DNA of 64,000 nucleotides from Squalus acanthias. Taxonomy: Eukaryota. Made by a program: the position numbers and the translations under genes. Below are positions 15,238 to 55,984 of the stretch, one piece after another. The stretch lies in the NCBI GenBank assembly GCA_030390025.1, contig CM059434.1, forward strand, positions 130,510,001-130,574,000, read 5' to 3'. The notes beneath the pieces were generated by a model. It did not search any database, was not told the DNA's origin, and was given only the letters and a program-made list of their open reading frames with translations. Every line of letters begins with the position of its first letter. Positions within the stretch are counted from its first letter, which is position 1.

Positions 15238-15455
15238 TGTGAGAAGTCGCACAACACCAGGTTATAGTCCAACAGTTTTATTTGAAATCACGAGCTTTCG
15301 GAGCGCTGCTCCTTCGTCAGGTGAAGTGAAGGAATACGAATCGGCAAAGCATATATAGACAGAGAACAATGCCTGTGTAGCGTACAATGTCAGACGACTA
15401 CAGTTAATCTTTCTGACTGCCTTTTCTCACACCTCGGCAGAGAAACAATCAGGAA
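15238..15455 (-). mobile_element. Penelope-like family-A arm with hammerhead motif
   Basis: Near-identical to 21745-21950; contains a minus-strand CUGACGA..GAAA core. Confidence 0.75.
15288..15324 (-). ncRNA. Minimal type-I hammerhead ribozyme motif
   Basis: Minus strand reads UCAC-CUGACGA-A-GGAGC agc GCUCC-GAA-AGCU-C-GUGA: stems I and II, palindromic AGCU in place of stem III, UC cleavage site. Confidence 0.65.
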
Positions 15456-15483
15456 GGCATTATATTAAAGACATAGCAAGATA

Positions 15484-15758
15484 AAAATGAGAAGTCGCAC
15501 AACACCAGGTTATAGTCCAACAGTTTTATTTAAAATTACGAGCTTTCGGAGAGCTTTGATGTAGGGAAAGATTTAATCTATGCATTTTCTCTGTGTTTTT
15601 ATATTCTGTGAATTCTGATAGATTCTCTCACAGTAACTTTGCCTGACGAAGGGGCGACAGCTCCGAAAGCTTGTAATTTTAAATAAATCTGTTGGACTAT
15701 AACCTGGTGTTGTGCGACTTCTCATTTTTGTCCACCCCAGTCCAACACCGGCATCTCC
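15484..15758 (+). mobile_element. Penelope-like family-A fold-back insertion
   Basis: Inverted arms ~15483-15551 / 15661-15728, 3' tail, flanking GCAAGATA duplication; plus-strand hammerhead at 15639-15676. Confidence 0.75.
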
Positions 15759-15874
15759 GCAAGATACAACTAAGACAATGAGGTGGGGGTCCACAGGGGG
15801 GTCTAATGTGTCAAATGCAGTCTGTATGGAAAACCATAAACTTTAAACATTTTACTGGGGGGGGGGGGGAATGG

Positions 15875-16060
15875 AAGAGGGATTACGTCAGCCTGTGGGT
15901 GGGCTAGACGCCGAACGTCAGCCTTTGCGTGCTTACGTCGTGCGTGGTGGTGGGGGGAGGGGGGAGCGGGGAGCGGGGAGCGAGGGATTACGTCACCGTG
16001 CGCGGCCAGCCGCCGTGCGCAGCCAGCCAGAGAGAGCGAGAGGGGGAGGGGCGGGACAGG
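15875..16060 (+). promoter_or_regulatory. NRF1: NRF1 CpG-rich promoter with CRE/ATF-like sites and a GC box
   Basis: TTACGTCA at 15883 and 15988, ACGTCA at 15915, TTACGTCG at 15933, GGGGCGGGA at ~16048; CpG-dense unique sequence directly upstream of the exon-1 donor. Confidence 0.75.
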
Positions 16061-16119
16061 CTCTGGCAGCGCAGGCACACACAGACCGAGTTCCAGGCCT
16101 TCGGCGCAGCCGCTCTGAG
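16020..16119 (+). other. NRF1: NRF1 non-coding exon 1 (5' UTR; start approximate)
   Basis: Ends GGCGCAGCCGCTCTGAG|GTTAGT; this matches my recollection of the mammalian NRF1 5' UTR (...GCAGCCGCTCTGAG|AACTTCATG). Confidence 0.7.
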
Positions 16120-17744
16120 GTTAGTGCTCACCGCGCATTCTCCAAATTTCAGCCCTGGCGCAGTCGCAAATCGGACCCCAAAAAGCTGCCCGGCCGCAGA
16201 AACGGGGTTTTTACTTCATAAAAGGACGGGAAAGAGTGCCGAGAGTGGCTTTTGGACGGGCGGGGGAAAGAGCTTAGATGCCAATCCAAGGGGGCCTAGG
16301 CCGCACTAGGCCTGCCTGTTACCAGGGCTGGATTTTGGCGGGACTAAGGGAGGAGGAAGAAAGGAGAGAGAGTGTGTGTGGGGGAATAAACTCTTTAGCA
16401 CTGAACAGGCTTGAGAGAAGGAGCAGAGATCCTCCATCACGCGGCCTGGGCCCTGCACCTAATGAAGGCTCTTGTAGATTATTAATTTTTTTTAAAAATA
16501 CGAATTAATGCTTCAGGGTTTATTCCCGCAGCTCCCAAACTCCTAAATATTTCTGTTCAAAATGGGTCCCAGGGAGGAGTTTTTTTTTAAAACAGTGCTG
16601 CAATTCAAGGGGTTCCTTCCTAGTCATCATTGGGCTTTTTAATGTATTTAAAAATCAATAACAAATCATATCGATTGACGTGGAGTTCAACAGAATTGAA
16701 GGATTGTCGAACATGTTTGCATTTTATAACTAAGCAAAACAAAATTGAGCTCTGACTTTGCAAAGATTGTGTATCGATTTGTTTATTTATTGGGGTAGAT
16801 TTGGAAGATTTGTCATCCTTTTATGCATTTAAAAAAATGTTTTTATTTTCAATTCTGTAAGAATATTGTGGTTTTATAAGGTGCTTGAAGTGAGTGGAGT
16901 TTTTTTTAATCTACTAAATTCAGTGTTATTAAAGTTCTGTAGCTCACTGGATATTTTGAGAATACTTAATGATTCAAATTGATTTAAAAAAATAAATAAA
17001 ATGCCTCTTCTAAATTAGCTTATGTGTAAAATAAGATTTTTAAATGGGGTAAGTCTTTGAATCAAAAGTCTGAGGATTTTGTTTCTGTTTGTAATGTCCT
17101 TCACCTGATTGGATTTTGAAGATCCTTGACTACTATTTTTTTCTTGTTTGCATGTATACAATTAGACCAATTTCTTGTGTGTCTAACTTGCGATCTTGCG
17201 GAGATAAAAATATTAAAATATATCAGAAGCACAGAAGAGGAGCAAAAAAAGGACTGATAGGTTTTAGTGAGTATGAAAAAAAAGACTGGTGGCTAACAAT
17301 GGTTAATAGGAAAGGCTTTTATAAATGTCTAAAGCAAGAGGGTAGTTAAAGAAGGGGTGGAGCTACTGAAAGATGAAGAATATCTTAAATAGAGAATAAA
17401 GGGATTGCAGAGATGCCTAACCAGTATTTGACGGAATGATTGAAAGAGTACCAGAGGAGAGAGTGGAGGAACTGCTAATATATAAACTCTATTAAAAGGG
17501 TTAATGAGACTTAGTTGACAAGTCTCCAGGACCAGATGGTTTACACTCCAGAATAACAAGGGAAGTTAGTGATGAAATAAAAGAGGTGTTAACCATAATT
17601 TACTAAAATTCTTTGGAAGTGGGTATTGCAAATTGTACCAAAGGACTGGAATTATAGACCAGTTAGCCCCCAGTCAATACAAGGAAAGCTGCTAGAGACC
17701 ATAAAATGGGATAAACAGTGAATGTTTATGAAGGTGCAGGCTAA

Positions 17745-18565
17745 TCAGGGACAGTCCAATTAAATATTGGGAAGACCGAAGCCATTTTATTCGGGCCCTG
17801 CCACAAACTCCGTTCCCTAGCCACCGACTCATCCCTCTCCCTAGCATCTGTCTGAGGCTGAACCAGACTGTTCACAACCTTGGTGTCATATTTGACCCTG
17901 AAATGAGCTTCCGACCACATATCCGTGGCATAACTAAGACCGCCTATTTCCACCTCTGTAACATTGCCAGTCTCTGCCCCGCATCAGCTCATCTGCTGCT
18001 GAAACCCTCATCCATGCCTTTGTTACCTCTAGACTTTACTTCCAACGCACTCCTGGCTGGCCTCCCACATTCTACCCTATGTAAACTTGAGGTCATCCAA
18101 AACTCAGCTGCCCGTGTCCTAACTCGCACCAAGTCCTGTTCACCCGTCACCCCTGCTCGCTGACCTACATTGGCTTCCGGTTAAGCAGAGCCTCGATTTC
18201 AAAATTCTCATGTTTGTTTTCAAATCCCACCATGGCCTTGCCCCTCCCTATCTCTGTAATCTCCTTCAGCCCCACAACACCCTGAGATATCTGCGCTCCT
18301 CACATTCAGCCCTCTTGAGCATCCCTGATTATAATCGCTCAACCATCTGTGGCCGTGCCTTCAGCTGCCTGAAGCCCTAAGCTCTGGAACTCCCTCCCTA
18401 AACCTCTCTTTTCCTCCTTTTAAGACGCTCCTTAAAACCTACTACTTTGACCAAGCTTTTGGTCATCTGCCCTAATTTTGTGGCTCGGGTCAATTTTTTG
18501 TCTTACAGCACTTCTGTGAAGTGCCTTGGGGCATTTTACTACGTTAAAGTCGCCATATAAATACA
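17745..18565 (+). mobile_element. L2 LINE 3' fragment
   Basis: KTAYFHLCNIA...LEVIQNSAARVLTRTK; LHWLPV-type motif; L2 tail. Confidence 0.8.
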
Positions 18566-18566
18566 A

Positions 18567-21140
18567 GTTAAATCAAATTGGGCAGGGCAGCCTTGAGGAA
18601 GAGTTTATTGAGTGTATTAGGGATGGATTTGTTGAGCAGTATGTAACTGATTCTACAAGGGGGCAAGCAACCTTGGACCTGGTCCTGTGTAATGAGTCAG
18701 GATTAATTAATAATGTCCTAGTTAAGGATCCCCTTGGAATGAGTGACCATAACATGGTTGAATTCCATATCCAATTAGAGGGTGAGAAGGTTGGTTCTCA
18801 AACAAGCGTACTGAGATTGAATAAAGGAGACTATGAAGGTATGAGAGCGGAATTGATTAAAGTGGACTGGGAAAATAGATTAAAGGGTAAGACGGTACAT
18901 GAGCAGTGGTGTTCATTTAAGGAGTTATTTTACAACTTTCAAAAAAATATCTATTCCACTGAGGAAAAAAGGGTGCAAAAGAAATGACAGCCATCCGTGG
19001 CTAAGTAAAGAAATTAAGGATAGTATCCGACTAAAAACAAGGACATATAAGGTAGCCAAACTTAGTGGGAGGATAGAAGATTGGGAAGTCTTCAAAAGAC
19101 AGCAAAAAGTAACTAAAGGATTGATTAAGAAAGGGAAGATAGATTATGAAAATAAATTAGCAAAAATATAAAAACAGATAGCAAGAGTTTCTATAGTTAT
19201 ATAAAAAGAAAAAGGGTGGCTAAGGCAAACGTTGGTCCCTTAGAGGATGAGACCGGGAAATTAATGGTGGGAAACATGGAGATGGCAAAAATGCTGAACA
19301 AATATTTTGTTTCAGTCTTTACGGTAGAGGACACTAAGAATATCCCAACACTGGACAAACAGGGGGCTCTAGGGGGTGGGGGAGGAGCTAAATACGATTA
19401 AAATCACTAAGGAATTGGTACTCAGTAAAATAATGGGACTCAAGGCGGATAAATCCCCTGGACCTGATGGCTTACATCCTAGGGTCTTGAGGGAAGTGGC
19501 AGTAGAGATTGTGGATGCTTTGGTAATTTTCCAAAATTCCCTGGACTCAGCAAAGGTTCCGGCAGATTGGAAAACTGCTAATGTAACACCCTAATGTAAC
19601 ACCCTTATTTAAAAAGGGTAGTAGGCAGAAGGCTGGAAATTATAGACCAGTTAGCCTAACATCTGTGGTGGGTAAAATTTTGGAGTCCATTATTAAGGAG
19701 ACAGTAACGGAACATTTAGATAAACATAATTTAATAGGACAAAGTCAGCATGGCTTTATGAAGGGGAAGTCATGTCTGACAAATTTGCTTGAGTTCTTTG
19801 AGGACATAACGTACAGGGTGGATAAAGGGGAACCAGTGGACGTAGTGTATTTAGACTTCCAGAAGGCATTCGACAAGGTGCCACATAAAAGATTATTGCT
19901 CAAGATAAAAAATCACTGGATTGGGGGTAATATTCTGGCATGGGTGGAGGATTGGTTATCTAACAGGAAGCAGAGAGTTGGGATAAATGGTTCATTCTCG
20001 GACTGGCAACCAGTAGCCAGTGGTGTTCCGCAGGGGTCGGTGCTGGGTCCCCAACTCTTTACAATCTATATTAACGATTTGGAGGAGGGGGCCGAGTGTA
20101 ACATATCAAAGTTTGCAGATGATACAAAGATGGGAGGGAAAGTAGAAAGTGAGGAGGACATAAAAAACCTACAAGGGGACATAGACAGGCTGGGTGAGTG
20201 GGTGGAATTTGGCAGATGCAATACAATATTGGAAAATGTGAGGTTATACACTTTGGCAGGAAAAATCAGAGAGCAAGTTATTATCTTAATGGCGAGAAAC
20301 TGGAAAGTACTGCAGTACAAAGGGATCTGGGGGTCCTAGTGCAAGAAAATCAAAAAGTTAGTATGCAGGTGCAGCAGGTGATCAAGAAGGCCAACGGAAT
20401 GTTGGCTTTTATTGCTAGGGGGATAGATTATAAAAACAGGGAGGTATTGCTGCAGTTATATAAGGTATTGGTGAGACCGCACCTGGAATACTGCATACAG
20501 TTTTGGTGTCCATACTTAAGAAAAGACATACTTGCTCTCGAGGCAGTACAAAGAAGGTTCACTCGGTTAATCCCGGGGATGAGGGGGTGGACATATGAGG
20601 AGAGGTTGAGTAGATTGGGACTCTACTCATTGGAGTTCAGAAGAATGAGAGGCGATCTTATTGAAACATATAAGATTGTGAAGGGGCTTGATCGGGTGGA
20701 TGCGGCAAGGATGTTCCCAAGGATGGGTGAAACTAGAACTAGGGGGCATAATCTTAGAATAAGGGGCTGCTCTTTCAAAACTGAGATGAGGAGAAACTTC
20801 TTCACTCAGAGGGTAGTAGGTCTGTGGAATTTGCTGCCCCAGGAAGCTGTGGAAGCTACATTATTAAATAAATTTAAAACAGAAATAGACAGTTTCCTAG
20901 AAGTAAAAGGAATTAGGGGTTACGGGGAGCGGGCAGGAAATTGGACATGAGGCTGAGTTCGGATCGGTCAAGGCCCTGTGGGTGGCAGAGCGGGCCCAGG
21001 GGCTGAGTGGCCGGGTCCTGCTCCTACTTGTGTTCTTTCGATTTGAGGTTAGGATCAGATCAGCCATGATCTTATTGAATGGCGGAGCAGCTTCGAGGGG
21101 CCAATTGGCCTACTCCTGCTCCTATTTCTTTGTTCTTATG
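18567..21140 (+). mobile_element. CR1 LINE, long disrupted ORF2 remnant
   Basis: LDLV/SDHN, KSPGPDG, QHGF, DFQKAFD, GVPQGSVLGP and KFADD motifs; frameshifts include a 13-bp tandem duplication at 19578-19603. Confidence 0.93.
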
Positions 21141-21707
21141 TAAGTTGTTGTAATCAGGGACAGTCAGCACAAATTTGAAAGGACAGGTTATGATTTACTG
21201 AATGGAATTCTTTTAAGGAAATTGGCATGGAAGAGCTTTAAGTTGAAGACCCTTGGTATTAAAGGTAAAAATATGAGCACAGATAGCGGGATGGCTGAAG
21301 GAGTCAAAGCAGAGTAAGTGTAAATGGATGTTTCTTGGATTGGCAAGATGTAGCTCATGGTATGCTTCAGGGATCTGTGTTGCACCTTCTTGGCTCAGTG
21401 GTAGCACTTGCTTCTGAGAGGTTGTGGCTTCAAGCTTTACTGAAGAATATACAACCTAGGCTAACACTTCAGTGTAGTACTGAGGGAGTGCTACATTATC
21501 AAAGGTGCTGCATTTTGGATGAGACATTAAACTGAGGTCCTGCATGTTCAAATGGATATATAGTGCCACTATTGGAAGAAGTACATCAACAAAACATATT
21601 ATCTGATTGTTTATCTCTTGCTGTTTGTGGAACCTTGCTGGGTGTAAATTGGCGGGTGTAAATTGGCTGCTGTAACAGCAGTGACTTTAATTCTAAGTAA
21701 TTTATTG

Positions 21708-21957
21708 ATGCGGAGATGCCGGTGTTGGACTGGGGTGGACAAAAGTGAGAAGTCGCACAACACCAGCAGTTTTATTTGAAATCACAAGCTTTCGGAGCTG
21801 CTGCTCCTTCATCAGGTGAAGTGAAGGAATACAAATCGGCAAAGCATATATAGACAGAGAACAATGCCTGTGCAACGTACAATGTCAGACGACTACAGTT
21901 AATCTTTCTGACTGCCTTTTATCACGCCTCGGCAGAGAGACAATCAGGTCAGTCAGG
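21708..21957 (-). mobile_element. Penelope-like family-A insertion inside an old SINE
   Basis: 13-bp duplication AAGTAATTTATTG at 21695-21707 / 21958-21970; minus-strand hammerhead at 21782-21819. Confidence 0.8.
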
Positions 21958-22064
21958 AAGTAATTTATTGGCATTGTAGTGCTTTGGGACGTCCCGAGGG
22001 CATGAAAGGTGCTACATAAATACAAGTTTGTTCTTTTCCCCTCCTTACACATAAATTATTTGGA

Positions 22065-22405
22065 TATAATGGGAGTTTTGATGAGAGTAAATAGGGAGAA
22101 ACTGTTTCCACTGGCAGGAGGGTCTGTAACCAGAGGTCAGATTTAAGATAATTGGCAAAAAAAAATCCAGGGGGGGAAATGAGAATTATTTTTTTTACAG
22201 TGAGTTGTTGTGATCCGGAATGCACTGCCTGAAAGGGTGGTGGAAGCAGATTCAGTGGTAACTTTCAAAAGGGATTGGATAAATACTTGAGAAGGAGAGA
22301 TTTGCAGGGTGATGGGGAAAGAGCAGGGGAGTGGAACTAATTGGATAGCTCTTTCAATGAGCCGGCACAGACACGATGGGCCAAATGGCCTCCTGTGCTG
22401 TATGG
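22065..22405 (+). mobile_element. CR1 3' end
   Basis: GAGAAACTGTTTCCACTGGCAGGAGGG...CR1 tail. Confidence 0.75.
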
Positions 22406-23330
22406 GTAAGGAGACCAAAACTGCACATAGTACTCCAGGTGTGGTCTCACCAAAGCCCTATATAATTGCAGCCAGACTACCTTACTGTTACTCTTATTTC
22501 ACTGCCTGTGAAGTGTTTTGGGATGTCGTGGGGACTTGGAAAAATGCTGTATATCTAGGCAAGCTGTTTCCTTTGTCCAAGTTTTCTACTGAAGTTTATT
22601 TTACAGTGCGACATGAATTGGTGCTGCTAGCGAGATATTGATGGTTACGGAGGATCTGGAGGGCTAGAATAAATGTCTTGCACACTTCCTTTTATTTGTG
22701 CAATGGCTGAAAAGTGTCGTTGCTAAGACAACAACTTTCACTTATATAGTGCCATTAAGGGAGTAAAATATCCCAAGGTGTTTCATGGTGGCAATGATGG
22801 AATGGATGCTTGAACTGTATAACCACTGCAATTGGACCAACAGGCACTGAGAAGCAATTGCATGATTTTGACTCTCTTATTCAGTATGATATTTGCATAT
22901 CTACTTGTGACATTTGCTTTTTGAATGCAAATTCCTTTTGCAAGGTGACTTTTGCAGTTGTTGCTTCCATTTGTTATTTAATGAATAGCAGCTAATTGTC
23001 AGGTCTTTTTCTTTTTTCTAAAGCCAGAGAGAACTTGCCTTCAGGACATCCAAAGCACATCACAGGCAGTGAATTACCTTTTGAAGTGTAGTCACTGTTA
23101 CATAGGTAAACGTGGTCGCCAATTAACGCTTGGTCCCACAAATAGCTGATGGGCTGCTTTTCATCGAGATTGTCCAAACTTAATTCCCATAAAACCCTAC
23201 AGCCAGCAGTGAGCGCGAGCCTGGTCTGAATTGGAACCTACGTTATCTGTGGTGATCAGGAAAGTCTAACCTTACCATCTGCTTTTGGTGGTGGTAGCTG
23301 AGACAGAGCTCCCTGCTCCTCTTCAAACAA

Positions 23331-23540
23331 AATTGAGAGGTCGCACAACACCAGGTTATAGTCCAACAGTTTTATTTGAAATCACAAGCTTTCGGAGCTT
23401 ACTACTCCTTCGTCGGGTCGAAGGAGTAGTAAGCTCCGAAAGCTTGTGATTTCAAATAAAACTGTTGGACTATAACCTGGTGTTGTGCGACCTCTCAATT
23501 TTGTCCACCCCAGTCCAACACCGGCATCTCCGCATCATGA
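23331..23540 (+). mobile_element. Penelope-like family-A fold-back insertion (perfect 86-bp inverted repeat)
   Basis: Arms 23327-23412 / 23419-23504, 36-nt tail, 13-bp duplication CCTCTTCAAACAA (23318-23330 / 23541-23553). Confidence 0.85.
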
Positions 23541-23583
23541 CCTCTTCAAACAATGCATGGAATCTTTTGCGTTCATCTGAATA

Positions 23584-23632
23584 TGATGTGGAGATGCCGG
23601 CGTTGGACTGGGGTGGACAAAAATGAGAAGTC
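23584..23632 (-). mobile_element. 49-bp family-A 3'-terminal insertion
   Basis: Family-A tail flanked by TTCATCTGAATA (23572-23583 / 23633-23644). Confidence 0.75.
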
Positions 23633-24486
23633 TTCATCTGAATAGGCAGATGAGGCCTCAGTTTAACGCCTCATCTGAAAGACGACATCTCTGACAGTGC
23701 AGCACTTCCTCAGTGGTCAGCCTAGATGATGCATTCAAATCCAAATGTTGTGCCTGAGGTTACAAACTTCTGAATCAGCAGCAACTGAACCAAGCTGTCA
23801 CTTAAGTGTGACCGGAATCCTAAAGTGATTTGCAGGAGCAGTTGGTGCTGTGGTAAGGTTAGACTTTCCTTATCGCCACAGATAACGTCGGTTCCAATTC
23901 AGACCAGGCTGGCGCTCACTGCTGGCTGTAGGGTTTTATGGGAATTAAGTTTGGACAATCTCGATCCTTATGAGCAAAGGCTACAGCACAGAATCTCCCC
24001 TAAGCTGGCAGTCTCACCCAGAGAGGCGAGGATAGAGCGGGAGCACCGGTGTGGGTGCAGTGCTGGGTGCATGGCTTCGACTTGCTACTGAAGCTTGGGC
24101 CTCTTCACTTTATCTCATGAGCTATGCAGCTTCTGAAGATCGATGTAATGACGTTGTCCAAAATATCTCTCCTTAAGGCTCAGTTGTGTCTTGCACTTGG
24201 TTATCTGCTCACATCAGATATAACCTGCTCAAGGCCAAGTAGGGATGGGCTATCAATGCTGGACTTGCCAATGATGCCCACATCCCGTGAACGAATATAA
24301 AAAAAATAACAGGCATCAGTTAACTTGAAAGGAATTTGGAGGGAAGGAAATATGTGTATGTCTGTATATTGCACAGCACTGGGTCTAGTTTTCTATCTTG
24401 CTAGTATTGCCTGTTGGAGGGGAGTTTGTACACTAACAGCCTACTATCACTTGCATTGTACACAACCTATATGTTAATATATGTAA

Positions 24487-24715
24487 AATAACAACAGAAA
24501 ACGCTGGAAAAACTCAGCAGGCGAGGCAGCATCCGTGGAGAGAGAAACAGAGTTAACGTTTCAGGTCGAAGACCTTTCATCAGGGTTCTGATGAAAGGTC
24601 TTCGACCTGAAACGTTAACTCTGTTTCTCTCTCCACGGATGCTGCCTCACCTGCTGAGTTTTTCCAGCATTTTCTGTTATTTCGGATTTCCAGCATCTGC
24701 AGTATTTTGCTATCG
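24487..24715 (+). mobile_element. Penelope-like family-B fold-back insertion
   Basis: 91-bp arms 24493-24583 / 24588-24678; 15-bp duplication TGTTAATATATGTAA (24472-24486 / 24716-24730). Confidence 0.85.
24581..24623 (+). ncRNA. Minimal type-I hammerhead ribozyme motif (family B)
   Basis: CAGGGUU-CUGAUGA-A-AGGUC uuc GACCU-GAA-ACGU-U-AACUCUG; 7-bp stem I, 5-bp stem II, palindromic ACGU. Confidence 0.65.
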
Positions 24716-24804
24716 TGTTAATATATGTAATTGTGTTTCAAGCAGCTTCTTAATTGACATGGTGTAACTTAACTCGCGTGTTTGGTCCTGTTAATTTTTA
24801 AATA

Positions 24805-25211
24805 CAGGAAACTTTCGTTTATCCGGCACCCAAATATCCGGAATTCTCGCTTAACCAGCAAAAATCATCCTCCGAAAACTCCTCTCAAATAACCGGCAAT
24901 GTTGCCGAGTCGCAGTCGAGTCTCCGCGAACGCCGAGTGCTCCGAAAACTCCTCTCAAATAACCGGCAATGTTGCCGAGTCCGCGAACGCCGATTTAGTC
25001 AGTAGGGGTACTTTTCAAAAGTGCCACTACTCGGCCTCCTGGCGCTGTCGGAAGTCCGAAACACTGCAGTAGCAGGAGTTGATTCTCCCGCGCTGCCTGG
25101 AGTCTCTTTGTTAAAAATAGCCTCGGTAGATATAACTCTCCGTTATCCGGTACTTTCGATAAACCGGCACCATGCCGGTCCCGTCAATGCCGGATAAACG
25201 AAAGTTTCCTG
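24805..25211. mobile_element. Tc1/mariner-superfamily (Tigger/pogo-like) MITE
   Basis: Perfect 24-bp TIRs CAGGAAACTTTCGTTTATCCGGCA, TA on both sides, internal 42-bp direct repeat. Confidence 0.88.
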
Positions 25212-25769
25212 TAAAATGAAAGCGATTTATACAAATTGCAGCTCAGCTTTTTAAAAAGTAAAACACTTAACTACAACAGCTTGAGTAATGCTGCACATTG
25301 GTTTCTTTTGGCTATTAGGCTGTGAATTAACACTGTCATCATAACTGGAGTATCAATACAGTTCGCATCTATTGCTTTAAAGTACCTGATGCGCTAAAAG
25401 GCACCCCTCTGTATTACAAAGCTGGAGCATTTCAAACTCCATTTAATGAATAGCTAGACTCCAGATAAACCGTAACCAGGATTACCCCACCCACCCACCC
25501 CCAGTGGTGCTGGGTCTGACTCCCACATGCATAGGCCATCTTAATAGTGCTTCCTATGATGTTTAATACAGGTTACCACTCCTGTAGGGGGTGTTTTTCT
25601 AAGGTTGAGAGTAATCAACAGAGCAGTAACAGTCTGGTCCACATACACCACTACTCACTGGAGGGGTTTGCTTCTGATGTGTATCCTCAAAGTTTTTTCT
25701 TGTGCTTGTATACTTTGAGTATGTAACTGAAGCTAATTAATTCACAGCTAAACAGCTTTGGTGGAGTTG

Positions 25770-28895: not shown

Positions 28896-29151
28896 GTGAG
28901 GCTTTAGACTGGGATGGGAGGGGAAGCTCATGTCTTTGACTTCCCTTCTGGGTGTAAACATTAAGACTGGGTCCATTCCTGTGGCAGTGATTTTAACAAG
29001 TTTTTAGTCCTACACAGGATGGCTTTCTTTCACTTTCCTCATTTTTCTGTAGCTTTCTGCCCTCCCCTTCCCTCCTTCCCTCCTCCTCTTCTCCAGACAC
29101 TGACTCCTTGCTGGAGTACAGTTCCACTGGTGTCTGCCACCCTCTGGTACT

Positions 29152-29540
29152 TGGCTCAGTGGGTAGCTTCTGAGTCAGAAGGTTGTGGGTTCAAGTCCCA
29201 CTCCAGAGACTTGAGCAGAAAATCCAGGCTGACACTCCCAGTGCAGTACTGAGGGAGCGCTGCACTGTTGGAGGTGCCGTCTTTCGGGTGAGACTTTAAA
29301 CTGAGTCTGCTCTCTGGTGGACGTAAAAGATCCCATAGCACTATTTTGAAGAAGAGCAGGGGAGTTCTCCCCGGTGTCCTGGCCAGCATTTATCCCTAGA
29401 CCAACGCCTTAAAGCAGATGATCTGGTCATTTATTTCATTGCTGTTTGTGGGAGCTTGCTGTGCGCAAATTAGCTGCTGTGATTCCTACATTACAACAGT
29501 GGCTACACTTCAAAAATACTTCATTGGCTGTGAAGCTCTT
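29152..29540 (+). mobile_element. Deu-type SINE
   Basis: GGCTCAGTGGGTAGC..TCTGAGTCAGAAGGTTGTGGGTTCAAGTCCCAC head and core. Confidence 0.75.
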
Positions 29541-30234
29541 CCTTCCCCAAAATGGCTGTTCTTCATGTGTGCGTTTTGACGCACGGTCTGAATATGCTTT
29601 ATAACTTCACAAGTGAAAAATGGCCACTTGAATGACATACCAAAAAGGCACTGGTAAGGAGTTCATGGCTGAAGAAGGGGAAAATCTTGCTGGAAAAAAA
29701 GAAGCGGCACAGATAATGCAGTGGACGGTAGAGCCAGCAGAGGGTGCTAGAGAACCATCAGAAAAACGAGCCAGCTGTCAGTGCCGTGAAGCACTGAGAC
29801 CCTGCGTAGCTGTCTAGTGTCAGCCAGCAGGGCCTCAAGAAGGGGGAAATCACATTCTAGAAGGGGCCCCACTAACTTTTAAAATCCCTTTAAATAAATT
29901 TGGTTTCTGTATTTTTTTAATGTAGTTTCCCTCCTGCCAAAACTCATCTCTTTTATCCCTTCGCCCCCACTAAAGGTACCTTGTCAAGTGCCCAGTCTTT
30001 GTGTGTGACTCTGGGCAGTGAGTGTGGGCAAGCTTTATGACTGTATGGGGCCAGTCCCAATCCTGTCCTCATTCCAATGTTCATGCACAGCACTTTCCAA
30101 CAGAGGCTGCTGGATAAGTGATGAGAAGTGGAAATCCTGGCTGAATTTTCTTTCCCCCTCTTCCGTCTCCCTCCACACCTCGGCCACCTTCGCCACACAC
30201 TGAACACTTCTTACACTCTCAGCCGACAAGCCCA

Positions 30235-30585
30235 GTGCAGTACTGCACTGTCAGAGGTGCCGTCTTTCAGATGAGACATTAAACCAAGGCCCTGTCTACC
30301 CCCTCGGGTGAACGTAATAGACCAAATGGCACTATTTCGAAGAAGAGCAGGGGGGTTATCCCCAGTGTTCTGGCCAATATTTATCCCTCAACCAACATCA
30401 CTAAAAAACAGATTATCTGGAAATTATCACATTGCTGTTTGTGGGATCTTGCTGTGCGTAAACTACCGCGTTTCCCACATTACAACAGTGACTACACTTC
30501 AAAAGTACTTCATTGGCTGTAAAGCGCTTTGCGATGTCCTGAGGTCGTGAAAGGCGCTGTATAAATGCAAGTTCGTTCTTTCTTT
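30235..30585 (+). mobile_element. Deu-type SINE, 5'-truncated
   Basis: Core and tail GAAAGGCGCTGTATAAATGCAAGT. Confidence 0.7.
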
Positions 30586-31006
30586 GTTACAATCTGCTGA
30601 GGTGCAGCATCACCACTGTTCCCACCTTCTCAAACAAAGCGGGTTGTACCAGAAATGGGCATATCTGGTTTTAAAACAAAAACACGGTGGGGGGGGGGGG
30701 GGGTGTTATATCGTTTAACCAAAGCTAAAGAAAAAAGGGAACAAAAAAAGATTTTAATTCGAAATGTAAGCAGCCGAATCTCGAGTTTGTGTTTTACTTT
30801 TCATTACTGGTTCCCCTTCCTTCCCCAAGTGTAAATCCTCCTCCCCACACTTTTAACTCTGCTGGGTTTAAGGCGGAGAAGATGGCTGCCTCCGCTCTTC
30901 CAATCTAGAGTTCCTGGAGGAATTGTGCGGAGTGGGAATGCAAGTTGCAGAAACCCAAGAGGTTTGTGTTGGGAGTTCAGGCTAGGGTGGGTGACTGTCT
31001 TAGGAT

Positions 31007-31165
31007 CAGTGTTTCCGTTAGGCTGCGCGGCCGTGCAACGGTCTGGAGGTCCCATGCAGCCGACTTTTAAATGGAAAAACCACACGTGCGCGGAAATTTG
31101 ATTAGGCCGCGTAGCCCGTGAAAGGGGCCGTGTTACCCCCCCCAAAAAAATGAGAGGGAACATTG
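31007..31165. mobile_element. Short hAT-like MITE
   Basis: Termini CAGTGTTTCC / GGGAACATTG; imperfect 8-bp flanks CTTAGGAT / TTTGGGAT. Confidence 0.5.
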
Positions 31166-31312
31166 TTTGGGATCTTTGCAAACTAATAAAGGAACGATCA
31201 CTGTGTGGCCTTTTGCCCAAAGTCAGATGCAGTAACTAATGGGCACCAAGGGCGCTTTTTCGTGTTTGGAGAGGTGTTGCGGCTCGCTGACAACTCAACT
31301 CTCTGCTTTCAG

Positions 31313-31427
31313 GTCCGGTGGGAATGGCGGCAGCTGCTGCCGTGGCGACAGGCAAGAAACGGAAGCGGCCCCACGCCTTCGAGTCCAACCCATCAATACG
31401 CAAAAGGCAGCAGACGCGTTTGCTACG
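31313..31427 (+). CDS. NRF1: NRF1 exon 3 (basic NLS region)
   Basis: GPVGMAAAAAVATGKKRKRPHAFESNPSIRKRQQTRLLR; AG/GT; 115 nt. Confidence 0.96.
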
Positions 31428-32997
31428 GTGAGACTGCAGTCCACGGCCAAGGAATCCCAGCCCAGAGCACTGGCTCCCAAGTAAAAGATAACTGTATCGG
31501 AGAGGGTCCAGGTTAGGGCAACATAACTGATCCCGCGTGAAAAGGGATGAGTTATGAGGAAAGATAAGAGAAGAGTAGTCGTTGCAGTCTAGAAAGAAGA
31601 TGGTTGGTGGAGGTGGGAGGGACTATCTCACCGAGGAATGGAAAGTATTGAAGTAAATGGTGTCGGTTAGATGAAAATGTAGATTTATTATTTTAAAATA
31701 CACTAAGAAAATAGCTTCAGATGAACATAGGAGCAGGAGTATGCCATTTGGCCCCTCGAGCCTGTTCAGTTGAATCATGGCTGATCTGTATCTTCTGATG
31801 AATAAGTGGAAATTAGTGTAAAAGAAATTTAGAACCAATATTAAAAGTTTTTTTATTCGATGTGAGAGTAACCTTTGGAATAATTTACCAAGCAAAGTAA
31901 TAGAGGCAAAAACACTGGGGTTAATCAGAATACAATCAGATGCCATGATGGGAGAGTGAATGTACTGCCGATGTGTCTCGATTGGCCCAATGACCTTTTC
32001 TTATTTGATTGATTGCTTAAAAGAAAAGCTGATGTAGAATTTCACTTTTTTTTTCCCAAAGCAGCCCCAATGGTGTAGTTAGTAAATACACTGCCCAGAG
32101 CCTGGCCGTGCACCGGGAAGATCCCTGCTTCAAATCCACGTCTGTAACTGAGTGAGTTGATCTTCTGAGGTTAAGTCACATTTGTTAGAGTGGAGGGAGT
32201 TTCACTCTACATCTATTGCCAAGCCTGGGAGTACTTGATACTGCGACCCTAGACAGAAAAGTATTGCACTCTCTGGCACTGACAATGGGGACTGGACAGA
32301 GAGGGCTGTAATTAAGCAAATGGCTGGGTCTCTAGTAAAGATTTGGTCTGAGGTGCCGCACTATTTGCAGTTGGCAGTTGGAGGAGAGCTGGACAGTCTG
32401 TTGATCAATGTATCGATGGTTGATCAGTCTGCTGATTAATCTGCCCTGGTGCTACTCAAAGCTTTCGTCATACATTCCAAAGACATTGGAACTTTACTTG
32501 CCACAGATTGAAGGAGATCTATTTATATCTATTTAATGTGGCAATAGGTAAACTACACAACACAATATGTTAGCTCTCTGTCATGTTTAGCTTTCCTCTG
32601 GAGGGCTCAGTTTTATTTTCCACACAGCTCCCTGCGCCAGTTGTTTGTGTGCTTTCCACCTGTGGTGCCTCATTTTCGAATCACTTTTTTTTTTGTAATG
32701 CTTTTATTTAATCCATTCCCCCCGCCTTCATACTTCCTCAAAATGGATACGTTTCTGCCAGTGAGTGTCAGCAGGCTATGATGATGGGTGGTCACAGACT
32801 AGCCTGTATCTCCTTCTCCCAACAAGCAGGGCAGTGATCAGGAGCAGGAGCCTTGGTTATTCCCCCTACCCCAAGTTTAAGGACAATGAACTCAATTACA
32901 GTAGCCCCACCAGAGCTCTGGCAGAGATCAGCCAGCTTGGCACAGACTGTGGATCAAACCCAGGACTTTCCTTACCTTTATGGCTGAGTACCACACT

Positions 32998-33596
32998 GGG
33001 CCACAAGGGGGTAGAAGTTATGCTGCAGCTATACAAAGCCCTGGTTAGACCACACCTGGAGTACTGTGAGCAGTTCTGGGCACCACACCTTAGGAAGGAT
33101 ATGTTGGCCTTGGAGGGAGTGCAGCGTAGGTTTACCAGAATGATACCTGGACTCCAAGGGTTAAATTACGAGGAGAGATTACTCAAACTAGGGTTGTATT
33201 CCCTGGAATTTAGAAGGTTACGGGGTGATTTGATCAAAGTTTTCAGGATATTATGAGGAACAGATAGGGTAGATAGAGAGAAACTATTTCTGCTGGTTGG
33301 GGAATCTAGGATTGGGGACATGGGCTAAAAATTAGAGCCAGACCTTTCAGGAGTGAAATTAGGAAACACTTCTCCAAACAAAGGGTGGTAGAAGTTTGGA
33401 ACTCTCTTCCGCAAATGGCAATTGATACTAGATCAATTGTTAATTTTAAATCTGAGATTGATAGATTTTTGTTAACCAAAGGTATTAAGGGATATGGGCC
33501 AAAGGCGGGTATATGGAGTTAGGTCGCAGATCAGCCATGATCTCATTGAATGGCGGAACAGGCTCGGGGGGCTAAATGGCCCACTCCAGTTCCTAT
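32998..33596 (+). mobile_element. CR1 3' fragment
   Basis: LVRPHLEYCEQFWAPHLRKD...; same subfamily as 839-1618. Confidence 0.85.
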
Positions 33597-33997
33597 GGCT
33601 GTATGTTTAGTAACAGAGCCATTGGGAGAGCCCCCATGTTTTACGCACATAGGAGCAGAGCATAGGGGGCCTAATTCTGGATCTAACTCCTGCTATACCC
33701 AACTTGAGCGTTTTGAGTTGCGTTTGAGGCTTGATTGAAAACTCCTCAATGTGACTGAGGTACTCCTTTCAATCAATAAAGCTGCTGTATTAAAAGCTTC
33801 AAGCTTTTACAGTATGCAGGTATTAGTCAGTGCTGACTAACTGACAAGGGTCCTTTCTGCACTGGATACTGTTATATTGGTGGTCTTTCTGGGCTAGTAA
33901 AATCTGTGCTACAATGGCCCAAGATCCAGACCCATTAGATTCTTCCACCTATCACCTCTCATTAAAACCCAATGACTGTAAGTCTCCTACAGAAATG

Positions 33998-34221
33998 TGA
34001 GAAGTCGCACAACACCAGGTTATAGTCCAACAGTTTTATTTGAAATCACAAGCTTTCGGAGCGCTGCTCCTTTGTCAGGTGAAGTAAAGGACTTCACCTG
34101 ACGAAGGAGCAGCGCTCCAAAAGCTTGTGATTTCAAATAAAACTGTTGAACTATAACCTGGTGTTGTGCGACTTCTCACATTTGTCCACCCCAGTCCAAC
34201 ACCGGCATCTCCGCATCATGG
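33998..34221 (+). mobile_element. Penelope-like family-A fold-back insertion
   Basis: 93-bp arms 33993-34085 / 34091-34183 (3 mismatches); 14-bp duplication CTCCTACAGAAATG. Confidence 0.85.
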
Positions 34222-34644
34222 CTCCTACAGAAATGCCATTGAGCAGGTTTGGAATAATTTAATCAGCCTGTTATTGAACTTTAAGTGATTTATCTGTTGC
34301 AGTTAGGGCAGCAGGAGAGTGGAGCTAAACCAGGGGACCAAGACCTATGGAGTGTTACTGTCCCATTCTGTTTTTTGGCAGTGTGCTCTGGGCATGTTGG
34401 GATTAGGGAATTGAGGACCACAGTTTGTACTACCTCGGGACTCTCAAAAAAAAAAAAATTCAGGTGTAGGACACCATTGGGACGCACAGAATCTGTCCCC
34501 TTCGCTCTAATGCGCCTACGGCAGTGGAAATATCGTGCGGGTACTGCCGCTAGCCAAAGTGAAACTGGCATTGGGTTCTTTGTCGTGACACCAGGCTTTC
34601 ATCATCTCATCAGAGCTTCTGTTTTTCTCTTCTCCCTCTCTCAG

Positions 34645-34771
34645 AAAACTACGGGCCACTTTAGATGAATACACCACCAGAGTTGGGCAGCAAGCGATCG
34701 TGCTCTGTATCTCGCCCTCCAAACCAAACCCAGTTTTTAAAGTGTTTGGAGCCGCTCCTCTTGAGAATGTG
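34645..34771 (+). CDS. NRF1: NRF1 exon 4
   Basis: KLRATLDEYTTRVGQQAIVLCISPSKPNPVFKVFGAAPLENV; AG/GTAAGT; 127 nt. Confidence 0.97.
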
Positions 34772-34872
34772 GTAAGTAGTGAATGACTCATGTGTGGGTT
34801 TTCCTCTCCGTTCCCGGCCCCTCATTTGAGGCTCTGTGCCCCCCCCCTGTCAGAGCTGTTAGATGCCAGGTT

Positions 34873-35294
34873 CATAGAAACATAGAATCTAGGAGCAGGA
34901 GTAGGCCATTCGGCCCGTCGAGCCTGCTCCACCATTCAATACGATCATGGCTGATCATCCAAATCCAGTACCCTGTCCCTGCTTTAATCCCCACAGTACA
35001 CATATCCCACCCTACCCCCGTAACCCCACATATTTAATTCCCCCTAACATATCCCATCCTATCCCCATAACCCCACATATTTAATCCCCCCCTAACACTA
35101 AGGGTCAATTTATCATAGCCAAATCAACCTAACCCGCACATTTTTGGACTGTGGGAGGAAACCGGAGCACCCGGAGGAAACCCACGCAGACACGGGGAGA
35201 ATGTGCAAACTCCACACAGACAGTCACCCGAGGTCAGATTCGAACCCAGGTCTCTGGCGCTGTGAGGCACCAGTGCTAACCACTATGCCACCGT
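34873..35294 (-). mobile_element. HE1-type V-SINE, full length
   Basis: tRNA-like A/B boxes, V-domain core (TGTGTGGAGTTTGCACATTCTCCCCGTGTCTGCGTGGGTTTCCTCCGGGTGCTCC), CR1-derived tail. Confidence 0.85.
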
Positions 35295-37439
35295 TCAGCT
35301 TGCAGTTCTCAAGCAGAAAGGTCAGCGATTTGATTGTGGATACCCATCCTTCAGGCTCGTGTGTCGGGCTGCATCACTGTGAGATCCCCCCCTCCCATAT
35401 CACACTAATATTAGCACATCTGCGGATAAAATGCTGGATGCATCTTGTGAGGATGTCTCTATCCAGTGTTAGCAGAGGGTCTCCTGGCTTCCCTTCCCCC
35501 CCCCCCCCTCCCCCCTCCCCCAGGAGACATGGCAAGTTGCAGGACTTGCTGCCCCTCTCCCCCAGGGCCACCATCATGTACCTCCTTGCAGCTAACACAA
35601 ATAATATTTGCAGAAGCCTCGGAGCCAGCTCCGTGCCCACCCTCGGCGTGTGGCCTGCAGGGGAGGAGGGAGAGAAGAACTTTCAGTGCAGCTGCTTTTC
35701 TTTCTGCCAACCTTCCCTCTGCAGCTCCTCTCCTGAAGTCATTGCTGGGGGTACAGTACCATGGGTCAAGTACCTCACCCCAGCTGCTCATCATCATCAT
35801 CTGTCCTAGAGAGAGAGTCTGGAGCCTATTGGACTACGGCGTGCATCACAACTGAGCCCTTTTCTGCCCTCCCACTCCCCAGCAGGTGTCACTAGATAGC
35901 GACTGGGGACGGGAATCCCAGCTAAGTTAGTTCCCCCACCCCACCCCCATCCTCCCTAGCCTAGGGGCACTGATGCTTTGTAATACCCAGTGGAGCAACT
36001 CCATTCTGTCTCCTTTAATGCTGAACTTAGCAAACTTAGAGGGGCACATAGGCTGGTGTGGAACGCTTCACGCTGTGAAACAGTTTTTCCTTTGAGTTGA
36101 CTCCTCAATAACCACCTCCCATCTGCCGTAGGGACAGGTTATTATTACCTCTGTGAATAAATCCAGGGAAGAGGGTTGAGTTTCGACTGAAAAACCATCC
36201 AGTAATCAGACAGCCGGATCAGTGGGCTGCTGTGAGCGTCAGCAGTGGGGGTGGGAGGGAGGGGGGTGTAAGGGTGACTGGACTGATAGCCCCGGGCTGT
36301 TCTGTCAGGGGGTTTATTCCCTGCAGACGGATTGCATTACACTGCATTTCAGGGAAGCCGTGCAAGATGCTGTAGGTCAAAGGTAGGATTGTGTTAGCAA
36401 ATGTGCAAGTAGACGTGGATTTAGTTGTTAAGGTTTTTCCCCTGGGGAGCTGAAGCCAGCATCTGCTTTTTTTAAAAAAAAAACACACACACACACCTGG
36501 CTTTGCTATTAATTGGGGTGTGGTGAAGGTTAGTGTTTGGGCTGTAACAAAGCATGGAATCGTTACCCATTTTACCCAATGTGACAAAGGCAGTTTATTT
36601 CCTTCCCTTCAATTTTCTTGCATTGATGTAAATTTCTGCTGTTTCTCACCACCCTGCAGTCTGCCATTTCAAGCACAGCTTCAGTTCAGAAGTCCCCACT
36701 GCCCAATATCTTTAATTTTTCCCTCCCTTTCTCTCAAATGCACTGAAGCCTCCTGGAATCTTCCTGGTTTGTATGATTCGGTACCGTTCCGTGCAGTTTA
36801 TATTCCCATTATGAGAACCCCATCGCTGCTGTTATTAAACATTATTTTTTCCTTTTTTGGGAGGGCTTCACAGCCAAGAGGGCAAATTGGGGACTTGCTC
36901 CCGGGCCTCTGCTGATACAGTTTGCTTGGGGTTACTCTGAGACTGATTTATCTCCTTCCCCGCGGGGTAGCCTATGTCCACCTTTTGCCTGACCCCTCGT
37001 GACTGGAAATTAGATGCACGTCAGCATCATCAGCGGGCAGCAAACCAAGTGTGACGATTGGTCACCCGCATGCAATGCACCATCATCTCGTGCAAATCCA
37101 CTAACAACATATAGCATTGGGGAAAGGGAAGGAGGAGAGATGTGTGACCAGCCCTCCTTGGAGATATTTAGCACGCTGTCCTTGAAACACTGACGTGGCT
37201 GTTCAGTACTCCGGTGGTAATTATTGTGCCTTTGTTCTAATTCCTGGTCGCTTGTGCCGGTTAGTAACCTCCCCCTCCTCCCTGGTCACCTTCCCTCTGA
37301 AGTACAGCAGCAGGTGCGACCATGTTTTGCTAACACAGCTCGCTGCTACAGAGCACCTGGAGCAGGCTGTTGCCTAGCGCCGGTTCCCTCGGTTGCCGCC
37401 CTGCAGATTGTTTACCTGAAGCCTCTGCCTTTCCCACAG

Positions 37440-37580
37440 GTACGCAAGTATAAAAGCATGATCCTGGAAGATCTGGAGTCCGCGCTGGCGGAGCATGCTC
37501 CCGCGCCTCAGGAGGTTAATTCTGAACTTCCACCGCTCACTATCGATGGAATCCCAGTCTCTGTGGACAAAATGACACAG
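37440..37580 (+). CDS. NRF1: NRF1 exon 5
   Basis: VRKYKSMILEDLESALAEHAPAPQEVNSELPPLTIDGIPVSVDKMTQ; 141 nt, phase 0-0. Confidence 0.97.
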
Positions 37581-37633
37581 GTGAGCTGAGCCTGTTTTGC
37601 ATTGACAAGGCATTCGAGGGAAGGGGAGGAGGA

Positions 37634-38843
37634 AATAGAAGCATAGCATAGAAGATAGGAGCAGGAGTAGGCCATTCGACCCCTCGAGCCTGCTCCGCCA
37701 TTCAATGCAATCATGGCTGATCATCCAAACTCAGTACCCTGTCCCTGCTTTCTCCCCATATCCCTTGATCCCTTTAGCCTTAAGAAATATATCTATCTCC
37801 TTCTTGAATATATTTAATGAATTGGCCTCAACTGCCTTCTGTGATAGAGAATTCCACAGGTTCACCACTCTCTGGGTGAAGAAATTCCTCCTCATCTCTG
37901 TCCTAAATGGCTTACCCCTTATCTAGACGGTGACCTCTGGTTCTGGACTCCCCCGCCATCGGGAACATCCTTCCTGCATCTAGTCTGTCTAGTTCTGTTA
38001 GAATTTTATAAGTTTCAATGAGATCCCCTCTCATTCTTCTAAACTCCAGCGAATATAAGCCTAATCGACCCAATCTCTCTTCATACGTCATTCCTGCCAT
38101 CCCAGGTATCAGTCTGGTAAATCTTCGCTGCACTCCCTCCATGGCAAGAACATCCTTACTCAGATAAGGCGACCAAAACTGCGCACAATACTCAAGGTGT
38201 GGTCTCACCAAGGCCCTGTACAACTGCAGCAAGACATCCTTGCTCCTGTACTCAAATCCTCTCGCTATGAAGGCCAACATACCATTTGCCTTCTTAACCG
38301 CCTGCTGCACCTGCATGCTTACCTTCAGCGACTGGTGCACAAGGACTCCCAGATCTCGTTGCACTTCCCCATTTCCCAATCTATTGCCGTTCAGATAATA
38401 ATCTGTCTTCCTGTTTTTGCCACCAAAGTGGATAACCTCGCATTTATCCACATTATACTGCATCTGCCATGCATCTGCCCAATCACCCAACCTGTCCAAA
38501 TCATACTGGAGTTTCTCTGCATCCTCCTCACAGCACACACGCCCACCCAGCTTTGTGTCATCTGCAAACTTAGAGATATTACATCTAGTTCCCTCGTCTA
38601 GATCATTAATATATATTGTGAATAGCTGGGGTCCTAGCACCGATCCCTGCGGTACCCCACTAGTCACTGCCACTTGGAAAAAGACCCGTTTATTCCAACT
38701 CTTTGCTTCCTGTCTGCCAACCAGTTCTCTATCCGAATTAGTACCTTACCCCCAATCCCATGTGCTTTAACTTTGCACGCTAATCTCTTATGCGGGACCT
38801 TATCGAAAGCCTTCTGAAAGTCCAAATACACCACATCCACTGG
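37634..38843 (-). mobile_element. CR1 (HER1-like) LINE fragment
   Basis: ORF 37912..38673 with GVPQGSVLGP and KFADD. Confidence 0.92.
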
Positions 38844-39212
38844 AGCGGAGTCTTCTGAAAGCTTCAACACGAGTGTCCTGATGAGAAGCTGACTTTTTCT
38901 TTACCACCTCCATTTTCTCTTCTGCTGTTCTCGCCACTCCTCCTCTCCACCACACGTTCCTTCCTCCGAAATGTGCTGATTTTCACTGGTCACCACCAGC
39001 CCACTCTGCCTTAGCCCACTGACCCGGCTTCACGTGTGGCCTCGACTCTGAGTGTTAACAGGCTATGTGAAGACGGATGGTTTCGTTGAGGTTGTTTTTT
39101 TTTCTCTTTCACACACACGCAGTTTTCAGCAGCCGTGGCAAAATAATGATCTGGACCAATAACCCTGGCCATCACTCCCCACCCCGCCTGTCCTTAACCA
39201 AGGTTTTGAATG

Positions 39213-39665
39213 ATGTGGAGATGCCGGTGTTGGACTGGGGTGGACAAATGTGAGAAGTCGCACAACACCAGGTTATAGTCCAACAGCTTTATTTGAAATC
39301 ACAAGCTTTCGGAGCGCTGCTCCTTCGTCAGGTGAAGTGAAGAGATGCATATAGGCACAGTGGACAAATGTTTTTTGTTTTCCATACAGACCCCAGCATC
39401 TGCCACATTGTCTTTGATGTAATGTTTTCCTGACTGACCTGTTTGGACACCATCCACACCTTTGATTGCCGTGATTATCTCTCTGCCGAGGTGTGATAAA
39501 GGGCAGTTGGAAAGATTAACTGTAGTCGTCTGGCAGTGTTCCCTGACTATATATGCTGTGACTATATGCATCTCTTCACTTCACCTGACGAAGGAGCAGC
39601 GCTCCGAAAGCTTGTGATTTCAAATAAAGCTGTTGGACTATAACCTGGTGTTGTGTGACTTCTCA
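39213..39665 (-). mobile_element. Penelope-like family-A insertion with 106-bp inverted arms and two intact hammerhead motifs
   Basis: Arms 39249-39354 / 39562-39667; 14-bp duplication CAAGGTTTTGAATG; hammerheads at 39299-39335 (-) and 39581-39617 (+). Confidence 0.85.
39581..39617 (+). ncRNA. Minimal hammerhead ribozyme motif, sense to the NRF1 pre-mRNA
   Basis: UCAC-CUGACGA-A-GGAGC agc GCUCC-GAA-AGCU-U-GUGA. Confidence 0.6.
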
Positions 39666-55832: not shown

Positions 55833-55984
55833 GAATGCTGTTTGATAGGGTGAAGGTTATATGTGTGAGTAACAGATTGAGCCATGTGAAATCAGTCATG
55901 CGAGGCCCAGTTGGTTGCACGAGGCCTTGCAAATTCTGAGTGAATATGCACGGTATTTAAGTTGAGAAGAGGCTATTTCTTAGA

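Follow-up and report, generated by a model that had tools for sequence, protein, structure and literature searches.

Hammerhead-bearing fold-back insertions in Squalus acanthias as 5'-short copies of a Penelope-like element

The seven short, related insertions present in the window (the whole 64,000-nucleotide stretch of Squalus acanthias DNA analysed here) are almost certainly 5'-short copies of the 3' end, or pseudo-LTR (pLTR), of an autonomous Penelope-like element (PLE), whole copies of which lie in the same genome. The explanation that best covers all of the observations, to which we give a probability of roughly 0.7, is that the insertions are stumps of this element that would have arisen by twin priming from both nicks of the target. 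Inverted arms, a one-sided tail and a minimal hammerhead are already published traits of PLEs, and the parent belongs to the EN+ PLEs. What goes beyond the published descriptions is a near-strict rule that one arm of each head-to-head pair carries the tail, and a pile-up of 5' ends just upstream of the hammerhead rather than at its cut site.

Insertions in the window

All seven insertions are present where a sequence-only reading of the window had placed them (Table 1), and they are 82-98% identical to one another. Every arm maps to the last ∼360 nt (2769-3131) of the reference unit L068 described below, and the arms match other copies at 93-100% identity. The same reading had given most of them target duplications of 12-14 bp, and exact duplications of this size flank five of the seven; the duplication of 15484 is only 8 bp long, and none was found when one was sought for the outer copy at 15238. 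The outer copy is interrupted in its UTR by 15484 and resumes beyond it, and the 8-bp site of the nested insertion is present once in uninterrupted copies elsewhere. Inverted arms had been reported for several insertions, and four of the seven are indeed fold-backs composed of head-to-head arms.

The claim that all seven carry a hammerhead holds in part. Five arms of four insertions (15238, the forward arm of 15484, 21708 and both arms of 39213) have an intact core together with both stems, I and II; the motif is incomplete in 33998 and 23331, and there is none in 23584. The plus arm of 33998 begins 7 nt 5' of the core, and the G8>A and G12>A changes in the two arms of this insertion are both at CpG sites and would reflect decay after insertion. 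The four loop-II variants and the change of stem I from UCAC/GUGA to UUGC/GUAA can be seen as they had been described, the UUGC/GUAA form being a variant of a sister subfamily (98% identity to locus L158).

Table 1. Features of the insertions, with positions in the window and, where marked, in the reference unit L068
Feature	Position	Strand	Remarks
Outer copy, 3' part, untailed end	15238..15483	-	unit 2900-3096 of L068; complete minimal hammerhead 15287-15325; split by 15484
Outer copy, 5' remainder of 3' UTR	15762..15848	-	unit 2770-2849
Nested fold-back, sister subfamily B	15484..15761	both	8-bp duplication 15476-15483 / 15759-15766
Untailed arm of 15484	15484..15555	-	terminates within stem II
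Tailed arm of 15484	15556..15761	+	hammerhead 15638-15677
Single tailed arm, 12-nt deletion	21708..21957	-	complete hammerhead 21781-21820; 13-bp duplication 21695-21707 / 21958-21970
Fold-back	23331..23540	both	13-bp duplication 23318-23330 / 23541-23553
Untailed arm of 23331		-	U4>C subfamily core; stem I cut off
Tailed arm of 23331		+	without CUGA; ends at the ATG of the ORF
Tail-only 49-bp insertion without hammerhead	23584..23632	-	12-bp duplication 23572-23583 / 23633-23644
Fold-back inside NRF1 intron	33998..34221	both	14-bp duplication 33984-33997 / 34222-34235
Untailed arm of 33998	33998..34089	-	G8>A
Tailed arm of 33998	34090..34221	+	G12>A; ends at the ATG of the ORF
Fold-back	39213..39665	both	14-bp duplication 39199-39212 / 39666-39679; 98-100% to other copies
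Tailed arm of 39213	39213..39361	-	hammerhead 39298-39336
Untailed arm of 39213	39366..39665	+	hammerhead 39580-39618, closely preceded by TATA-like and initiator-like motifs
Host NRF1 exon (context only)	34643..34771	+	PF10491 E=1.9e-21; other exons near 31315-31428 and 37440-37580

The parent element

The sequence shared by the insertions continues 5' of the hammerhead across 30 loci, with decaying coverage, into an ORF with reverse transcriptase (RT) and GIY-YIG motifs. A 134-bp query gave at least 43 matches at 97-100% identity (40 of 775 candidates were scored), and a 5' piece of the ORF used as query retrieved 12 long loci. Open ORFs of 891-892 aa are present in three of these 12, one of which (L070) has changes in catalytic Asp residues; together with the 97-100% identity of the copies, the open ORFs suggest recent activity. 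Our reference unit, L068, extends for 3131 nt from the ATG to the tail end, and comprises an 891-aa ORF (stop at 2676), a UTR of 455 nt, the short end (position 3095), and a tail that runs up to the next ATG. Its hammerhead occupies unit positions 3013-3045, the core starting at 3013 and the predicted cut falling after 3041. Copies of all lengths share the same two end positions, the short end and the tail end. The L068 locus is a full-size version of the layout of the stumps, with an inverted untailed arm, a partial tandem, a full unit, a tail and a 13-bp duplication, and thus has the partial-tandem pLTR, inverted 5' copy, one-sided tail and target duplication of a PLE.

The 891-aa protein matches RVT_1 (E=1.1e-8) and contains DKG at 296, YIDD at 532, and VVYLIRCRKGC..WYIG at 790 within a CCHH-type endonuclease, and the motifs align. 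The GIY-YIG model PF01541 gives no match to this protein, yet it is listed on many homologues, of which the closest named are shark proteins at 82-93% identity. A CX4CxxC linker (CHGNLCKTC at 753) precedes the endonuclease. Since a CX2-5CxxC linker in this position is described in the available portion of PMC8557442 as absent from Penelope and Poseidon and common to Neptune and Nematis, the linker and the CCHH-type motifs point to a parent in Neptune or Nematis rather than Poseidon.

Exact 21-mers were counted genome-wide at 101,308 for the 3' end, 11,975 for the 3' part of the ORF and 901 for its 5' part, with 0 in each reversed control; the 21-mers and the hammerhead pattern discussed below differ in conservation, and ratios of their counts are rough. 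Searches of the open-access literature turned up no description of this shark PLE family, for which entries in Repbase or Dfam may exist.

The hammerhead motif

A hammerhead pattern has 39,692 exact matches in the genome and none in the reversed control, so its occurrence cannot be attributed to chance. Five window arms show the features of the minimal type-I form, namely a CUGANGA/GAA core, stems I and II, a palindrome replacing stem III, and an extra base at 9/10.1, supporting the identification originally made from the window and matching the minimal hammerheads of PMC4209133. An Rfam scan of the window returned no hammerhead family at E<=5, the best results being sub-threshold miRNA models on the palindromes. 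The 190 arms that reach upstream of the motif yielded 76 variants, among which position 7 accepts all four letters and loop II ranges from 3 to 9 nt, while the stems are maintained; a U4>C subfamily is recurrent among the copies.

Covariation was scored on 30 distinct rows (28 rows from 29 recurrent variants, and three window arms). These rows are related and represent a few independent events, not thirty; core conservation at positions set by the search pattern arises by construction and was left out as evidence. Of the 270 stem cells 97% are paired, against 24-48% in slid controls, and the covariation score was reached by none of 500 shuffles. At stem I pair 3, 15 variants have C-G, 14 have U-A and one has U-G, which bears out the conservation of structure that had been suspected from the window copies. 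Two-sided changes occur in two of the nine stem pairs, stem II pair 5 having one, and the outermost pair of stem I is unpaired in 7 of the 30 rows. Folding of the monomer hammerhead gave z values of -0.7 to -2.3. In the parent RNA the hammerhead is likely to be a genuine ribozyme fold under selection. In the stumps it is likely a passenger, because arms on opposite strands would be unable to form the tandem dimer by which such motifs act in the model proposed for PAc, the Poseidon element of Anolis carolinensis.

Where the arms end

We sampled the first 100 exact matches on one contig in position order, together with 42 arms from loci chosen for hammerhead matches; the samples from that contig are drawn from its first 3 Mb and 29 Mb and include segmental duplicates (L095 and L100), so that the counts are partly non-independent. 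Only 31 of the 100 position-ordered arms reach the ORF, the other 69 ending within the UTR. The ends are concentrated immediately upstream of the hammerhead, where 28 of 85 at-risk arms stop 0-12 nt 5' of the core, a rate of 0.025 per nt as against ∼0.001 elsewhere in the UTR and in the ORF (one arm being censored, and a default offset serving to position arms without a recognisable core). The ends form a smear of 12-15 nt, and in subfamily C, with 16 of 91 arms, their accumulation is less marked.

The ribozyme itself might be thought to set the size of the short copies, if these derived from hammerhead-cleaved RNA. Its fold is conserved with compensatory changes, and the cut site coincides with the start of 2 of the 42 selected arms, although these probably represent a single duplicated event. 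Among position-ordered arms 12 of 97 end inside the core, whereas the cut site and the nucleotide on either side of it account for none of the 97; the majority of short arms traverse the whole hammerhead, and cleavage is dispensable for insertion in vitro according to the available portion of PMC11167929. We regard an origin from cleaved RNA as improbable in the extreme; such RNA would rarely serve as template.

The edge of the pile-up differs between subfamilies, lying at 7-9 nt in A and 14-15 nt in C. Subfamily A has 3 of its 38 ends at 0-15 nt within the 10-15 nt interval, subfamily C 7 of its 15 (Fisher p=0.003). This shift tracks a relaxed initiator-like A at -7 in A and at -13 in C, each ∼30 nt 3' of a TATA-like box; the box was used in choosing the reference arms, the spacing between box and initiator was not. 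Because the edge moves with the TATA/initiator-like motif, the smallest arms may have arisen by run-off copying of the mRNA leader, extending to a Pol II start just 5' of the hammerhead and predicted at -7 (A) or -13 (C). We put the odds of this at about even, making it a weaker proposal than that for priming below. The location of the promoter and start of Penelope within its pLTR (PMC2377424, in the portion available) is consistent with the run-off idea. Long arms would require tandem read-through RNA. An extra G before -7, seen in 8 of 9 cases, was considered as a sign of cap copying and rejected, since in many cases this G comes from the partner arm.

Clustered 5' ends, and the absence of the ORF from most copies, are also what would be seen if the insertions belonged to a genuinely non-autonomous family, a PLE-dependent mini-element or retrozyme propagating as a short unit, which was one of two origins that the sequence-only reading had offered. 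Retrozymes derived from pLTRs are reported in vertebrates, including one cartilaginous fish, in the accessible part of bioRxiv 10.64898/2026.07.22.740005, and like the shark stumps these non-LTR retrozymes are ORF-less, pLTR-derived and hammerhead-bearing. They are arranged in head-to-tail tandem arrays, however, whereas the stumps consist of a single arm, or of two head to head, and these arms vary in length. Neither the window copies nor the 142 sampled arms include a head-to-tail hammerhead array, and identity with retrozymes was rejected for want of either head-to-tail repetition or a short unit of constant extent and common breakpoints. The junctions vary from copy to copy, lengths form a continuous range, the short copies of each subfamily share variants with its ORF-bearing copies, and the TATA-like box is missing from the stumps. 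One junction shared by L095 and L100 was examined as a candidate non-autonomous family and rejected, the two being 99% identical over 3 kb and thus a segmental duplication. The mini-element reading is therefore largely refuted, and we consider it very unlikely. The other origin offered, extreme 5' truncation, is almost certainly the correct one, all arms mapping to the 3' end of an ORF-bearing 3.1-kb PLE; the description of the insertions as ORF-less remains apt for the window copies but not for the family, with its 891-aa RT and GIY-YIG ORF.

Head-to-head pairs and the mechanism of insertion

Among the 45 head-to-head pairs in the sample, 29 of which come from the position-ordered set, 43 consist of one tailed and one untailed arm within a single duplication (p=5.9e-11 against 0.5); the remaining two are untailed-untailed, and none has two tails. 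The four window fold-backs obey this rule, and in subfamily C 22 of 25 pairs have one tail, one has none and two include an unscored arm (22 of 23 fully scored pairs). The tail occurs on either side of the pair. The duplication is 12-14 bp in 32 of the 45 pairs, and duplications are located in AT-rich, non-repetitive sites. Tailed ends fall within a few bases of the ATG, and the template is therefore likely to be the leader-ORF junction; folding of the leader/tail region gave no significant structure (z -0.36).

The two arms of a pair are more than 99% identical over 0.65-1.1 kb in five of the six pairs with such long overlaps, arguing that both came from one source. Loop II differs in length between the arms in 5 of the 31 pairs with both stems scored, so that some events would have used two templates; the notion that the arms usually come from different subfamilies was rejected because the difference is seen in just these five.

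The presence of one tailed and one untailed arm within one duplication leads us to favour twin priming. The RT-endonuclease would nick the two DNA strands 12-14 bp apart, and each nick would prime one cDNA, with one RT start site used per strand; the short end and the tail end would correspond to two internal RT start sites like those seen in vitro for the Anolis PLE. Joining of the two cDNAs at their 5' ends would generate the fold-back, and a single arm would result when the second cDNA is missing or very short. That the two RT start sites are coupled in this manner is, in our judgement, probable. In the available portion of PMC11167929 the PLE protein cuts and extends both strands, RT initiates at two internal positions flanking the tail, and unprocessed RNA is the main substrate. 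The bulk reads in that work reveal no start-site difference between the strands, which counts against coupling; the element studied there is a Poseidon, not a Neptune. We found no proposal of twin priming or coupled start sites for PLEs in the open-access literature searched.

A different route from the same parent would produce the mirror arm by fold-back self-priming, or by template switching, in a single priming event, with the pile-up resulting from RT stalling past the hammerhead or from microhomology joining. Self-priming was put forward for Adineta PLEs from palindromes at junctions, on an antisense template (PMC3846280, in the portion available), and here too several junctions lie within short palindromes or duplicated 5-12 nt pieces and arms are near-identical. 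Self-priming leaves unexplained, however, the two different fixed ends and the tail on either side of the pair, the five pairs with different loop-II lengths, and the very unequal lengths of some paired arms (e.g. 2263 and 177 nt), and stalling is difficult to reconcile with a stem I of 4 bp in both A and C, yet a pile-up edge that shifts. We therefore think this route unlikely, at perhaps one chance in five, and retain twin priming from both nicks.

Relation to known elements and significance

The comparisons that follow refer to the available portions of the sources named. Like the Neptune-type EN+ PLEs of PMC8557442, the shark element has a single ORF with RT followed by a C-terminal GIY-YIG domain, GxKF-like, DKG, YIDD, CX2-5CxxC linker and CCHH motifs, and shows 5' truncation, partial tandems, an inverted 5' copy, a 30-40 nt tail at one end and a pLTR hammerhead. 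It differs from them in its ∼1e5 ends, mostly of tiny arms, in a tail that ends at the ATG where theirs ends inside the ORF, and in duplications at AT-rich, non-repetitive sites where theirs are in microsatellites. With the minimal hammerheads of PLE pLTRs (PMC4209133) the shark motif shares the lack of helix III, a palindromic 15.2-16.2 (AGCU), the extra nucleotide at 9/10.1, G10.1-C11.1 and a 4-bp stem I. Both also occur by the thousand as scattered single motifs, and in opposite-strand pairs spaced by 100-700 bp; the shark motif departs from the others in a stem II of 5 bp and the recurrent U4>C subfamily. The number of exact matches in the shark compares with ∼4,000 in coelacanth and ∼9,000 in Xenopus, counted with a different descriptor, and one searched supplement of that paper contains no shark term.

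PAc (PMC11167929) resembles the shark element in having two internal RT starts that bound the tail at the pLTR-ORF junction, extension of both strands, AT-rich targets including its own pLTR, and a hammerhead unnecessary for insertion, but it belongs to another clade, and the shark hammerhead lies ∼120 nt 5' of the ATG; neither coupling of start sites per event nor a 5' pile-up is described for PAc in the text available. The Pen2 and Pen2a elements of Adineta vaga (PMC3846280) likewise have an inverted pLTR, a tail at one end, and a TATA and TCACT initiator-like motif in the pLTR, with duplications of 8-10 bp; they are unlike the shark element in their few copies, and their authors favoured antisense self-priming.

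As a discovery the insertions are ordinary, being stumps of a known class of retroelement with a known ribozyme motif. Their value lies in the size of the natural data set that they provide on the insertion cycle of PLEs, which is poorly understood, and in two sharp predictions, that the start sites are coupled and that the RNA starts at -7 or -13. They also offer a caution to repeat annotators, who should not take such hairpins for MITEs, for miRNA genes or for a SINE in its own right. We advance tentatively, at somewhat less than even odds, the fuller proposal that both RT start sites fire in a coupled manner, one per nicked strand, and that internal initiation at the leader-ORF junction turns monomer mRNA into tiny run-off copies of the capped leader. 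If this is true, coupled starts and leader run-off would provide one mechanism for the tail on one side, for the mirror-image arms and for the abundant dispersed minimal hammerheads in animal genomes, legible from the ∼1e5 copies in the shark.

Relatives and hammerhead variants of the main family

The 891-aa RT + GIY-YIG ORF of the main Penelope-like element (PLE) family has near relatives in three distant sharks (P0001, P0003 and P0005, with 93%, 86% and 82% identity respectively), and the next named relatives are in turtles, at ∼45% identity. Within the family, a U4>C change in the hammerhead core defines a recurrent subfamily (15 of the 190 arms surveyed), and in some of its members pair 5 of stem II shows a compensatory switch to U-A. 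An AATAAA motif lies ∼9 nt 3′ of the predicted hammerhead cut site and is conserved across all main-family arms, the window instance being at 39623–39628.

Features of the hammerhead subfamily and the second PLE family
Feature	Location	Predicted hammerhead
U4>C subfamily members	L069, L077, L160, L232 (sampled loci elsewhere in the genome); window 23381–23421	
Second fold-back PLE family copy	window ~24483–24716	minimal, ACGU palindrome; 24582 (+), 24589 (−)
Second fold-back PLE family copy	window ~55983–56210	minimal, ACGU palindrome; 56073 (+)

Genomic setting of the insertions

At window 15476–15766 a main-family copy is inserted within the UTR of another, which matches the insertion of an element into its own pseudo-LTR (pLTR) suggested in a paper on an Anolis PLE (PMC11167929). 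Directly to the right of the 15238/15484 insertion is a CpG-rich stretch (about 15.9–16.1 kb) that may be a promoter, and exons of the host gene NRF1 lie within 31315–37580 and at ~50894. Tandem arrays with 24-bp and 31-bp units occupy 1–804 and 54433–54670, and numerous CR1-like fragments are spread across the whole window. At the sampled locus L034, an LTR-type element (390–7501) with gag- and pol-like frames interrupted by stops encloses a main-family fold-back.

A second family and the start of the main-family 3′ UTR

Both window copies of the second family have a one-sided tail and 14-bp duplications, and they account for the sub-threshold mir-14 matches in an Rfam scan of the window. Another sampled locus, L032, contains a second PLE ORF (2760–1768, minus strand) followed by the same ACGU-palindrome hammerhead. 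The first part of the main-family 3′ UTR (2676–2815 in the whole-copy reference unit, L068) bears a decayed resemblance to the pLTR end of this second family, with a local score of 64 where the best of 300 shuffles reached 33, and holds a hammerhead-like remnant in which stem II pairing is retained. Judging from these sequence features, the start of the UTR is perhaps an older pLTR retained upstream of the current one.
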